The position numbers and the translations under genes are program-made. From a virus (taxonomy: Duplodnaviria > Heunggongvirae > Uroviricota > Caudoviricetes), in IMG/VR virus record IMGVR_UViG_2663762992_000003, positions 1 to 23,721 of that record: a stretch of 23,721 bases of DNA. The stretch is one strand, 5' to 3'. Each line of letters begins with the position of its first letter. The first letter of the stretch is position 1. Below are positions 3,207 through 6,913 of the stretch, piece by piece. The notes under the pieces are model-generated. The model did not search any database and was not told the DNA's origin. It worked only from the letters and a program-made list of their open reading frames with translations.

Positions 3207-3669
3207 TCCTCAGCGTAAAGCTTTCCTCGATATGTTGGCGTGGTCAGAAGGAACGGATAACGGGCGACAGCCAACCCGCAATCACGGCTACGACGTTATT
3301 GTAGGTGGTGAGCTATTCACTGATTACTCCGATCATCCTCGCAAACTTGTCACGCTAAACCCAAAACTTAAATCAACGGCTGCTGGACGCTACCAGATTC
3401 TTTCCCGGTGGTGGGATGCTTACTGTAAACAGCTTGGTTTGAAAGACTTTTCCCCCAATAGCCAGGACGCAGTGGCATTGCAGCAGATTAAAGAGCGTGG
3501 CGCTTTACCGATGATTGATCGCGGTGATATTCGTCAGGCAATCGACCGTTGCAGCAATATCTGGGCTTCACTGCCGGGTGCTGGTTATGGTCAGTTCGAG
3601 CATAAGGTTGACAGTTTGATTGCAAAATTCAAAGAAGCAGGCGGAACGGTCAGAGAGATTGAGGTATGA
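3193..3669 (+). CDS. R: Endolysin R (lambda-type lytic transglycosylase)
   Basis: 158 aa; [20 protein letters not shown]...GGTVREIEV is near-identical to remembered lambda R. Confidence 0.95.
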
Positions 3670-4127
3670 GCAGATTAACCGCGATTATCTCCGCTCTGCT
3701 CATCTGCATCATCGTCTGCCTGTCATGGGCTGTTAATCATTACCGTGATAACGCCATTACCTACAAAGCCCAGCGCGACAAAAATGCCAGAGAACTGAAG
3801 CTGGCGAACGTGGCAATTACTGACATGCAGATGCGTCAGCGTGATGTTGCTGCGCTCGATGCAAAATACACGAAGGAGTTAGCTGATGCGAAAGCTGAAA
3901 ATGATGCTCTGCGTGATGATGTTGCCGCTGGTCGTCGTCGGTTGCACATCAAAGCAGTCTGTCAGTCAGTGCGTGAAGCCACCACCGCCTCCGGCGTGGA
4001 TAATGCAGCCTCCCCCCGACTGGCAGACACCGCTGAACGGGATTATTTCACCCTCAGAGAGAGGCTGATCACTATGCAAAAACAACTGGAAGGAACCCAG
4101 AAGTATATTAATGAGCAGTGCAGATAG
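3666..4127 (+). CDS. Rz: Rz inner-membrane spanin
   Basis: 153 aa with N-terminal transmembrane segment and coiled-coil region; matches lambda Rz. Confidence 0.95.
3886..4068 (+). CDS. Rz1: Rz1 outer-membrane lipoprotein spanin, embedded in Rz in the +1 frame
   Basis: 60 aa; lipobox LVVVGC and a proline-rich stretch ([15 protein letters not shown]); fully nested in Rz as in lambda. Confidence 0.9.
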
Positions 4128-4158
4128 AGCTGCCCATATCGATGGGCAACTCATGCAA

Positions 4159-4452
4159 TTATTGTGAGCAATACACACGCGCTTCCAGCGGAGTATAAAT
4201 GCCTAAAGTAATAAAACCGAGCAATCCATTTACGAATGTTTGCTGGGTTTCTGTTTTAACAACATTTTCTGCGCCGCCACAAATTTTAGCTGCATCGACA
4301 GTTTTCTTCTGCCCAATTCCAGAGACGAAGAAATGGTGGGTGATGGTTTCCTTTGGTGTTACTGCTGCCGGTTTGTTTTGAACAGTAAACGTCTGTTGGG
4401 CACATCCTGTAATAAGCAGGGCCAGCGCAGTAGCGAGTAGCATTTTTTTCAT
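4159..4452 (-). CDS. bor: Bor lipoprotein (serum-resistance moron)
   Basis: 97 aa, signal peptide with lipobox (LITGC), matches lambda Bor; opposite strand to late transcription. Confidence 0.93.
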   Translation of the reverse strand: MKKMLLATALALLITGCAQQTFTVQNKPAAVTPKETITHHFFVSGIGQKKTVDAAKICGGAENVVKTETQQTFVNGLLGFITLGIYTPLEARVYCSQ

Positions 4453-4743
4453 GGTGTTATTCCCGATGCTTTTTGAAGTTCGCAGAATCGTATGTGTAGA
4501 AAATTAAACAAACCCTAAACAATGAGTTGAAATCTCATATTGTTAATATTTATTAATGTATGTCAGATGCGAAGGATCATCACTGTATTCCCGGATTAAC
4601 TATGTCCGCAGCCCTGACAGGGAAACTCCTCTGCGGGAGTGTCCGGGAATAATTAATAACGATGCACACAGGGTTTAGCGCATACACGTATTGCATTATG
4701 CCAACGCCCCGGTGCTGACACGGAAGAAACCGGACGTTATGAT

Positions 4744-5277
4744 TTAGCGTGGAAAGATTTGTGTAGTGTTCTGAATGCTCTCAGTAAATAGTAATGAATT
4801 ATCAAAGGCATAGTAATATCTTTTATGTTCGTGGATATTTGTAACCCATCGGAAAACTCCTGCTTTAGCAAGATTTTCCCTGTATTGCTGAAATGTGATT
4901 TCTCTTGATTTCAACCTATCATAGGACGTTTCTATAAGATGCGTATTTCTTGAGAATTTAACATTTACAACCTTTTTAAGTCCTTTTATTAACACAGTGT
5001 TATCGTTTTCTAACACAATGTGAATATTATCTGTGGCTAGATAGTAAATATAATGTGAGACATTGTGACGTTTTAGTTCAGAATAAAACAATTCACAGTT
5101 TAAATCTTTTCGCACTTGATCGAATATTTCTTTAAAAATGGCAACCTGAGCCATTGGTAAAACCTTCCATGTGATACGAGGGCGCGTAGTTTGCATTATC
5201 GTTTTTATCGTTTCAATCTGGTCTGACCTCTTTGTGTTTTGTTGATGATTTATGTCAAATATTAGGAATATTTTCAA
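4744..5277 (-). CDS. Hypothetical protein, 177 aa (lambda right-end ORF; ybcV-like by position)
   Basis: Long ORF in the AT-rich region; same position and size as the uncharacterised ORF downstream of bor in lambda and DLP12. Confidence 0.7.
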
Positions 5278-5439
5278 TTAATAGTATTGGTTGCGTAACA
5301 AAGTGCGGTCCTGCTGGCATTCTGGAGGGAAATACAACCGACAGATGTATGTAAGGCCAACGTGCTCAAATCTTCATACAGAAAGATTTGAAGTAATATT
5401 TTAACCGCTAGATGAAGAGCAAGCGCATGGAGCGACAAA

Positions 5440-5646
5440 ATGAATAAAGAACAATCTGCTGATGATCCTTCCGTGGATCTGATTCGTGTAAAAAATATGC
5501 TTAATAGCACCATTTCTATGAGTTACCCTGATGTTGTAATTGCATGTATAGAACATAAGGTGTCTCTGGAAGCATTCAGGGCAATTGAGGCAGCGTTGGT
5601 GAAGCACGATAATAATATGAAGGATTATTCCCTGGTGGTTGACTGA
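5440..5646 (+). CDS. Hypothetical small protein, 68 aa (YbcW-like)
   Basis: [71 protein letters not shown]; divergent from the 177-aa gene; synteny with DLP12 ybcW. Confidence 0.6.
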
Positions 5647-5810
5647 TCACCATAACTGCTAATCATTCAAACTACTTAACCTGTGACAGAGCCAACACGC
5701 AGTCTGTCACTGTCAGGAAAGTGGTAAAACTGCAACTCAATTACTGCAATGCCCTCGTAATTAAGTGAATTTACAATATCGTCCTGTTCGGAGGGAAGAA
5801 CGCGGGATGT

Positions 5811-6005
5811 TCATTCTTCATCACTTTTAATTGATGTATATGCTCTCTTTTCTGACGTTAGCCTCCGACGGCAGGCTTCAATGACCCAGGCTGAGAAATT
5901 CCCGGACCCTTTTTGATCAAGAGCGATGTTAATTTGTTCAATCATTTGGTTAGGAAAGCGGATGTTGCGGGTTGTTGTTCTGCGGGTTCTGTTCTTCGTT
6001 GACAT
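5811..6005 (-). CDS. Ribbon-helix-helix-like small DNA-binding protein, 64 aa (YlcI-like)
   Basis: Basic N-terminus (NRTRRTTTRNIRFPNQM) followed by two predicted helices, an Arc/MetJ-like pattern; convergent with the 68-aa gene; beside cos. Confidence 0.6.
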   Translation of the reverse strand: MSTKNRTRRTTTRNIRFPNQMIEQINIALDQKGSGNFSAWVIEACRRRLTSEKRAYTSIKSDEE

Positions 6006-6192
6006 GAGGTTGCCCCGTATTCAGTGTCGCTGATTTGTATTGTCTGAAGTTGTTTTTACGTTAAGTTGATGCGGATCAATTAATACGATACCTGCGTCAT
6101 AATTGATTATTTGACGTGGTTTGATGGCGTAGATGCACGTTGTGACATGTAGATGATAATTATTATCATTTTGCGGGTCCTTTCCGGCGATC

Positions 6193-6216
6193 CGACAGGT
6201 TACGGGGCGGCGACCT
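6193..6216. other. cos: cosN junction: right-end CGACAGGTTACG joined to the 12-nt cohesive end GGGCGGCGACCT (6205-6216)
   Basis: Exact lambda end-junction sequence read directly in the window. Confidence 0.9.
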
Positions 6217-6393
6217 CGCGGTTTTTCACTATTTATGAAAATTTTCCGGTTTAAGGCGTTTCCGTTCTTCTTCGCCGTAACCTAATGTTTTTATTTAAAA
6301 CACCCCCTGAAAAGAAAGGAAACGACAGGTGCTGAAAACGGGCTTTTTGGCCTCTGTCGTTTCCTTTCTCTGTTTTTGTCCGTGGAATGAACA
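6217..6393 (+). promoter_or_regulatory. cos: cosB region (terminase small-subunit and IHF binding sites) upstream of Nu1
   Basis: Sequence between cosN and the Nu1 start closely matches the remembered lambda left end (CGCGG...TTTATGAAAATTTTCCGGTTTAAGGCG...). Confidence 0.75.
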
Positions 6394-6913
6394 ATGGAAG
6401 TCAACAAAAAGCAGCTGGCTGACATTTTCGGCGCGAGTATCCGTACCATTCAGAACTGGCAGGAGCAGGGAATGCCCGTTCTGCGGGGTGGTGGCAAGGG
6501 TAATGAGGTGCTTTATGACTCTGCCGCCGCCATAAAATGGTATGCCGAAAGGGATGCTGAAATTGAGAACGAAAAGCTGCGCCGGGAAGTTGAAGAACTG
6601 CGGCAGGCCAGCGAGACAGATCTCCAGCCAGGGACTATTGAGTACGAACGCCATCGACTTACGCGTGCGCAGGCCGACGCACAGGAGCTGAAAAATGCCA
6701 GAGACTCCGCTGAAGTGGTGGAAACTGCATTCTGTACTTTCGTGCTGTCGCGGATCGCAGGTGAAATTGCCAGTATTCTCGACGGGATCCCCCTGTCGGT
6801 GCAGCGGCGTTTTCCGGAACTGGAAAACCGACATGTTGATTTCCTGAAACGGGATATCATCAAAGCCATGAACAAAGCAGCCGCGCTGGATGAACTGATA
6901 CCGGGGTTGCTGA

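Follow-up and report, generated by a model that had tools for sequence, protein, structure and literature searches.

Whether the small genes between the lysis genes and cos of a lambda-type phage form one functional unit is the question raised by positions 4453–6192 of a viral DNA of 23,721 nucleotides from the Caudoviricetes (IMG/VR virus record IMGVR_UViG_2663762992_000003, positions 1 to 23,721), the whole of which is termed the window. The block at 4453–6192 has bor as its left neighbour and contains three small open reading frames (ORFs), which correspond to lambdap78, lambdap79 and a ylcI-like gene, and which are termed p78, p79 and ylcI hereafter. In an original prediction, made from the sequence alone, this AT-rich block next to cos was regarded as a moron block and as a candidate for an unrecognised accessory module, such as a regulator with its effector, a superinfection exclusion system or a toxin-antitoxin-like (TA-like) pair. 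The results described below suggest that it is probably the known right-end moron region of lambda and of the prophage DLP12, which consists of four independently exchanged single-gene cassettes, with host-regulated lysogen genes and p79 as a late gene. These genes are among the last uncharacterised ones of the best-studied phage, and about three quarters of complete E. coli genomes carry at least some of the block. They are already annotated in lambda and DLP12, and the current understanding of this region is not overturned. The ORFs and the flanking genes are located as follows.

4159–4452, minus strand: bor, a lipoprotein gene and the left neighbour of the block (ORF listing)
4744–5277, minus strand: ORF of 177 amino acids with a TTG start (ORF listing)
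5440–5646, plus strand: ORF of 68 amino acids (ORF listing)
5811–6005, minus strand: ORF of 64 amino acids (ORF listing)
from 6394: Nu1
from 6914: A

The window is a lambda-type late region, in which R, Rz and Rz1 extend up to position 4127. We take cosQ (GGGTCCT) to be located at 6175–6181 and the 12-nucleotide cohesive end GGGCGGCGACCT at 6205–6216, both placed by comparison with the lambda ends. The G+C content is 0.31–0.37 over 4800–5400, as compared with ~0.50–0.55 in the flanking lysis genes and in Nu1/A. The block is 97.8% identical to positions 46753–48490 of lambda (J02459) and 99% identical to phage PhiR26_1. The drop in G+C content, the identity to lambda and the position between Rz/bor and cos confirm that it is an AT-rich moron block next to cos. 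The right end of lambda (bor, lambdap78, lambdap79 and an unannotated ylcI-like ORF) and the borD-ybcV-ybcW-ylcI-nohD region of K-12 DLP12 carry the same genes in the same order and orientation, in agreement with the predicted conservation at both places. The block differs from the lambda reference only by point differences, such as Asp instead of Glu at position 30 of YlcI; the lambda reference annotates p78 with 177 amino acids and leaves ylcI unannotated. In E. coli genomes, the three genes are named ybcV, ybcW and ylcI by RefSeq. Of 5426 complete genomes, 4086 contain the block at least in part, and 1359 contain the full ybcV/ybcW/ylcI trio.

Loci were gathered via YlcI, via p78 and via distant DUF1398 relatives of p78, and their neighbouring genes were then mapped. 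Homology searches with these genes were dominated by copies of lambda control DNA, either noisy or contaminating, and sequence diversity was drawn instead from a library clustered at 50% identity, from a distant query and from plasmids. Pairwise DNA comparison places the cassette borders at 4676/4715, 5277/5278, 5792/5794 and ~6245, and gives the following cassettes.

to ~4676, minus strand: bor cassette with a hairpin and the promoter region
~4715–5277, minus strand: p78 cassette with its upstream region
~5278–5792, plus strand: p79 cassette
5794 to ~6245, no strand assigned: ylcI-cosQ-cosN mosaic unit of ~450 bp

Among the 80 viral loci found via YlcI, ylcI adjoins cos/Nu1 in all that reach that far. 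Its other side is occupied by p79, p78 and bor in ~43 loci, directly by bor, with neither p78 nor p79, in ~24, and, in ~10, by a p79 variant of 79% identity and then gns/csp genes, without p78. In Qin-type loci, ynfO, a relative of ylcI, is followed immediately by ydfO, a relative of p78, because p79 is missing. Conversely, p78 and bor are found without a ylcI match in 22 loci, 11 of which reach Nu1, and this arrangement is confirmed by ORF listing for one of them (L225). Distant DUF1398 genes (30–37% identical) are solitary and monocistronic in Pseudocitrobacter and Kluyvera chromosomes, and another lies amid Salmonella-type prophage morons with a SopE-like gene; no small partner gene is found beside them. 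The ylcI-cosQ-cosN unit is still 88–98% identical (96–98% in four of five loci) where the identity to the Nu1 of the window is only 35–46% and the left neighbour is different. The homology blocks of the bor cassette at 4101–4509 and 4576–4676 of the window are kept in phages in which bor directly follows ylcI. The block therefore shows the presence or absence between collinear phages, the sharp borders and the deviant composition by which morons are defined. Like the classical lambdoid morons (lom, bor and rexAB, and those of HK97), it consists of AT-rich single genes that have their own regulatory sequences, lie between conserved phage genes, are variably present and are dispensable for lytic growth; p79 differs from them in being oriented with the late operon. 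Because the genes assort in many combinations with sharp borders, the pattern is that of independent morons, and not that of a TA pair or a regulator-effector operon.

A single module of YlcI and the DUF1398 protein, to which p79 might also belong (a regulator and its effector, a type II TA-like pair or a superinfection exclusion system), as had been proposed, is very unlikely in view of this assortment. The arrangement in Qin-type prophages, in which ynfO is directly upstream of ydfO and co-oriented with it, does resemble an operon of a ribbon-helix-helix (RHH) antitoxin and its toxin; ylcI is upstream of p78 on the same strand in the examined prophage loci that have both, and YlcI is RHH-like, as are many antitoxins. 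In lambda, however, an oppositely oriented gene lies between ylcI and p78, and the conserved adjacency and co-orientation of type II TA genes are not seen for this pair. The ~24 loci with ylcI but neither p78 nor p79, the 22 loci with p78 and bor but no ylcI match, the p79 variant without p78 and the solitary distant DUF1398 genes likewise argue against a module. Distant YlcI relatives are found in four settings, namely beside a Tn3-family transposase gene on Klebsiella plasmids, on a phage-plasmid of Enterobacter, between antA/B and icd in a satellite-like element of Morganella and on a small Vibrio plasmid, and in none of them is a DUF1398 gene the neighbour. The DUF1398 fold resembles none of the known toxins in the fold comparison, and no known toxin family was recognised. 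Superinfection exclusion is not supported either: no transmembrane segment or lipoprotein signal is detected in the three proteins (maximum 19-residue Kyte-Doolittle average of 0.34–0.93, as compared with 1.49 for the bor signal peptide), whereas many known exclusion proteins, such as SieB, are located in the membrane, and none of the three matches the PADLOC defence models below E=0.01.

In the preferred reading, that of independent cassettes, the identities of the single genes are as listed below, together with the evidence for each; pN/pS denotes the ratio of non-synonymous to synonymous polymorphism, and AF2 denotes AlphaFold2.

4744–5154, minus strand: p78/YbcV/YdfO-like gene, DUF1398, 136 amino acids (Pfam, PDB match, homologue starts and pN/pS)
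5440–5646, plus strand: p79/YbcW gene, 68 amino acids, acidic (co-oriented with late transcription; published Vulcan activator)
5811–6005, minus strand: ylcI/ynfO-like gene, 64 amino acids, basic (PF13132, NF041551, AF2 and profile matches)

All four ORFs, including bor, are found where they had been predicted, but the predicted length of 177 amino acids for p78 does not hold. DUF1398 (PF07166) matches this ORF only from residue 49 (E=3.5e-46; 156.6 bits with a cut-off of 22). The ATG at 5154 is the start in every full-length homologue aligned, down to 26% identity, and the true length of p78 is therefore 136 amino acids. An upstream extension like that of p78 is found in a single database entry. 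The 41 extra codons overlie the promoter region, the published PdhR and FNR sites and the mosaic junction. As judged from these alignments, the 177-residue reading is an over-extension. p78 aligns with E. coli YdfO, the structure of which is solved (PDB 2HH8), with E=1.6e-70, and ydfO of Qin is ~79% identical to it. The AlphaFold model of p78, built with 21 diverse sequences (predicted local distance difference test, pLDDT, 84), has a duplicated helix-helix-strand-strand-strand unit, and the two alpha-alpha-beta-beta-beta repeats of the YdfO fold are thus present. p78 is soluble, and its fold is an orphan. The DUF1398 family is small, with 250 clusters at 50% identity having E<=0.001, many of which are lambda fragments.

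Database annotations of p78 conflict with one another in length (177 or 136 amino acids) and in name ('putative envelope protein', 'head protein' or DUF1398). The label 'head protein' (PHROG/RefSeq) and the old label 'putative envelope protein' were both rejected, because the YdfO structure was determined in solution by nuclear magnetic resonance and because p78 has neither a signal peptide nor a transmembrane segment. The long form of p78 and the two functional labels are apparently artefacts of annotation. The ydfO gene is strongly induced by ionic liquid according to literature expression data. Over-expression of YdfO is said to raise oxidative-stress resistance in a paper (PMC4077768) that cites Wang et al. 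2010. This claim is probably due to a mix-up of the gene names YdfO and YfdO. The mix-up is suspected because the work of Wang et al. reportedly names YfdO of the CPS-53 prophage.

As had been noted, bor, p78 and ylcI lie on the minus strand and antisense to late transcription, so that p79 alone of the four genes runs with it. The three genes oppose the Q-antiterminated late transcript, and promoters of their own, active in the lysogen, are therefore the most likely source of their expression. The sites that bear on this expression are as follows.

5216–5232, no strand assigned: PdhR box ATCTGGTCTGACCTCTT, upstream of p78 and within the p78 cassette (4715–5277)
5245–5258, no strand assigned: FNR-type site aTGAT-TTAT-gTCAA, in the p78/p79 divergent region
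6066–6079, no strand assigned: perfect FNR consensus TTGAT-GCGG-ATCAA, centred 67.5 bp upstream of the ylcI ATG

The PdhR box is unique in the window and exactly matches the site published between ybcV and ybcW of K-12. PdhR binds the matching sequence in the DLP12 copy of K-12, in which the ybcV and ybcW mRNA levels are 10-fold and 8.9-fold lower, respectively, in a pdhR mutant. The 24-mer TGTTGATGATTTATGTCAAATATT, which is published as the FNR target 'ybcW' from chromatin immunoprecipitation on microarrays (ChIP-chip), is present exactly at 5240–5263. The FNR box at 6066–6079 is the only perfect FNR match in the 23.7-kb window, and none of 100 shuffled sequences contains one. Although its 4-nucleotide spacer varies, 173 of 178 loci retain both half-sites. 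The FNR ChIP-chip targets 'nohB' and 'nohA/ydfO' of DLP12 and Qin correspond to 6060–6083 with one spacer base different; the ChIP-chip paper assigned these peaks upstream of ylcI to the neighbouring noh genes. A −10-like sequence, GACAAT, is located at 6044–6039 on the minus strand upstream of ylcI. If it were used, the FNR box would be centred at about −40.5/−41.5 relative to the ylcI promoter, a class II geometry, and an FNR-dependent promoter is predicted on this basis. ybcV and ybcW are reported to be expressed 1.7–1.8-fold more in microaerobic growth, and more than 1000-fold more upon overexpression of T4 MotB, which is reported to alter H-NS-dependent repression. In RNA-seq of MG1655, the transcripts of ybcW and ylcI, which are convergent, overlap one another. 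These data on the cryptic prophages of K-12 transfer directly to the window, since it contains the reported sites.

These results are consistent with a model in which lambdoid phages exchange the four abutting cassettes (bor, p78, p79 and ylcI-cosQ-cosN) independently. According to this model, p78 and ylcI, like bor, would be lysogen genes that are silent in many conditions and that are activated by regulators with which the host controls its anaerobic and pyruvate metabolism, and to which their promoters would be wired by the FNR and PdhR sites upstream of p78 and by the perfect FNR box upstream of ylcI. p79, which has the orientation of late transcription, is made in lytic growth and triggers the NAD+-depleting defence Vulcan there. 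YlcI would most likely be a small Arc-type RHH regulator that binds DNA. If the cassettes are independent and host-regulated and do not form a module, the genes should be studied singly. For such studies the analysis provides a corrected p78 of 136 amino acids with FNR and PdhR sites upstream of it, a cassette map, a tight ylcI-cosQ-cosN unit, a predicted FNR-dependent ylcI promoter and a link of the 68-residue ORF to Vulcan.

This link comes from the identity of p79, which is 100% identical to lambdap79 (lambda NC_001416, 47738–47941), the protein tested in a preprint on Vulcan. According to this preprint (September 2026), Vulcan is a new NAD+-degrading defence with a NIR domain, an NADase; in 7 of 7 lambda-vir escapers from Vulcan, lambdap79 had been lost through recombination with the prophage Qin, and co-expression of lambdap79 and Vulcan is toxic. 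lambdap79 is therefore the activator of Vulcan. The escapers can take this route because ynfO and ydfO of Qin, which flank the place of the missing p79, provide homology for recombination. p79 of the window is identical to the reported trigger of NAD+ depletion by Vulcan and in this respect resembles other phage-encoded activators of abortive-infection defences. The response of Vulcan to p79 also indicates that the protein is made in lytic infection. The view that only bor has a described role is thus outdated, since lambdap79 activates Vulcan and a relative of p78 has a solved structure (2HH8). In a screen of lambda by CRISPR interference (CRISPRi), p78 is non-essential and p79 scores as 'essential' only because of a polar block on the late operon. 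Both genes are dispensable for lytic growth.

p79 has no Pfam family, even at E<=10, and no match in the PDB. It falls in phrog_657, the function of which is unknown, and has an isoelectric point of 4.9. Its homologues are found solely in Escherichia and Shigella, when contaminating lambda copies are set aside. It is possible, though doubtful, that p79 is a counter-defence or host-takeover protein whose activity is guarded by Vulcan, an explanation that is compatible with the preferred one. Defence systems that are triggered by phage anti-defence proteins exist, for example PARIS, which is triggered by Ocr, and a dispensable, small, acidic and narrowly distributed protein that is nevertheless enough to trigger Vulcan would fit this pattern. 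Among the four genes, p79 has the highest pN/pS (0.43–0.72 for its more diverged alleles), and most of the changes affect the N-terminal part, but this ratio is based on just ~20–27 substitutions, and no target or inhibitory activity of p79 is known.

YlcI, which had been predicted to be RHH-like, matches DUF3950 (PF13132) with E=5e-20 (71.4 bits with a cut-off of 25) and NF041551 with 36.6 bits (cut-off 30), and has an isoelectric point of 10.5. Its AF2 monomer model (pLDDT 66) has a disordered basic N-terminal tail and helices at residues 19–32 and 34–62, and no strand is formed. The sole match of this model in a Foldseek search of the PDB is Arc repressor, which is not significant at E=9.6. 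When a diverse profile of the YlcI family, derived from plasmids, is compared by hhalign with Arc/Mnt/AmrZ, 41 columns are aligned in the expected register (P=3e-4, probability 39%), and the best PDB match of this profile is the RHH protein CdbA (6SBW; E=0.019). The more diverse profile is required, as searches of the PDB with the single YlcI sequence or a shallow profile give just a chance match to a ribosomal protein. No Pfam RHH family matches YlcI at E<=10, and BLASTP gives no alignment of YlcI with Arc or Mnt. YlcI is like the Arc/Mnt/CopG-type RHH repressors in its basic N-terminal arm, in its two helices of matching length and register and in a short strand motif (I-R-F-P, as compared with N-L-R-W-P in Arc); this likeness is weak and is not accompanied by a significant Pfam RHH match. 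The model, the Arc match and the profile matches agree with one another, and suggest that YlcI is likely, but not proven, to be an Arc-type RHH protein, for which DNA binding is predicted.

Several points weigh against the reading of host-regulated lysogen genes with an RHH-type YlcI. The lines of evidence for the RHH fold are each weak singly (pLDDT 66; E=9.6; E=0.019), and the Arc, Mnt and AmrZ sequences used for hhalign were entered by hand. Independent assortment leaves room for regulation of p78 or bor by YlcI in phages that have these genes in combination. The data on FNR and PdhR were obtained with the cryptic prophage copies of K-12 and not with this phage, no expression data for p78, p79 or ylcI in a lambda lysogen were found in the literature, and a review names only cI, rexAB, lom and bor as expressed in the lysogen. 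The proposed −10 elements are weak, and the FNR box, because it is symmetric, could serve a plus-strand promoter instead. Expression in the lysogen from own promoters, as proposed earlier, is plausible in view of the FNR and PdhR sites and the K-12 expression data, but a simple sigma-70 promoter scan gives no minus-strand promoter for ylcI or p78. The counts obtained by the simple promoter and terminator scan are at chance level.

With no lysogen expression data, no described phenotype for p78 or ylcI and no requirement for the small ORFs in lytic growth, these ORFs might be taken for non-functional remnants that are retained by linkage to cos and bor. This explanation is highly improbable, because all of them are under purifying selection. 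The pN/pS is 0.16–0.28 in most of the diverged alleles of p78 (0.44 at the highest) and 0.04–0.30 for ylcI; it is ~0.2 for bor. One ylcI allele has 15 synonymous and only 2 non-synonymous changes, and hardly any variation between alleles is seen in the N-terminal 49 residues of YlcI. Conservation of the DUF1398 family reaches down to ~26–30% identity with its invariant residues kept, which are R15, Y35, T41, N43, R80, R112, Y114 and E125 together with the motif AGVF-x-W. p79 is evidently made as a protein, given the response of Vulcan.

The conserved linkage of ylcI to cos raises the possibility that YlcI acts on cos, either by modulating packaging or termination or by shielding the prophage cos from satellites or competing phages. 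The conservation of ylcI-cosQ-cosN as a 450-bp unit irrespective of the Nu1 allele and the moron content is in favour of such a role, as is the listing of YlcI/YnfO-family genes in capsid-forming phage-inducible chromosomal islands with their own terminase genes. The linkage may, however, reflect mere proximity and recombination at a conserved cos. ylcI is absent from lambda-type phages with the same Nu1 and cosN (L225), distant family members on plasmids or beside a transposase gene have no packaging genes nearby, and ylcI is antisense to late transcription, the stage at which packaging occurs. An action on cos is therefore unlikely. It is quite unlikely, too, that YlcI is an FNR-activated Arc-like repressor that has evolved within the cos unit and acts on cos-proximal DNA in anaerobic lysogens; p79 could, separately, be a counter-defence protein guarded by Vulcan. 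Such a cos-proximal YlcI might adjust read-through or packaging behaviour at cos, or keep satellites and rival phages from using the prophage cos.

YlcI exists in two forms with a common, nearly invariant N-terminus of 49 residues: the form of 64 residues, the tail of which ends with TSEKRAYTSIKSDEE (window 5811–5865), and the form of 77 residues, YnfO, with a different, longer C-terminal tail, as in the Qin prophage. The 77-residue form is found in the examined loci in which a DUF1398 gene directly follows (L109–L114). In the Morganella locus (L245), the YlcI-family gene at 3477–3659 is the sole plus-strand gene within an int-alpA-antA/B-icd-primase array on the minus strand. It is divergent from the icd-like gene, the start of which it overlaps, a position expected for the small repressor of a satellite element.

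bor, which matches the Pfam family Lambda_Bor with E=1e-30, has an extended hairpin in its upstream region.

4586–4651, no strand assigned: extended hairpin between the p78 stop and bor, with perfect outer arms of 10 nucleotides

The predicted energy of this hairpin is −31.4 kcal/mol, and its z-scores are about −3.9 to −4.0 for either strand. The hairpin overlaps with the bor promoter of the HK630 record (~4582–4610, minus strand) and travels with the bor cassette in phages without p78 and p79.

Copies of the lambda right end with ~97–100% identity are present in assemblies of unrelated organisms and look like contamination with lambda control DNA. Many of them are contigs of ~3.5 kb or 'plasmids' of 48.5 kb, for example from Kitasatospora, Brevibacillus, Staphylococcus, Synechocystis and a 'Campylobacter phage' (loci L085–L108 and L115–L121; plasmid hits H101, H105, H106 and H111–H116; phage hit H83).

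An Rfam scan of 3900–6500 gives just chance miRNA-like matches, which are located in cosB. A strong inverted repeat at 6301–6375 in cosB, in the interval between cosN and Nu1, is terminator-like and carries these weak matches; it represents the terminase-binding R sites of lambda and no RNA gene. An ORF of 40 amino acids with a ribosome-binding site at 5232–5354 (plus strand), which is annotated in one lambda imm434 record, is probably not a gene, because it extends across a cassette border and shares positions with the FNR site. A repeat search for operators common to the intergenic regions yields just short two-copy matches. A direct repeat of 13 nucleotides, 85% identical between 5978–5990 inside ylcI and 6169–6181 in the cosQ region, is probably due to chance.

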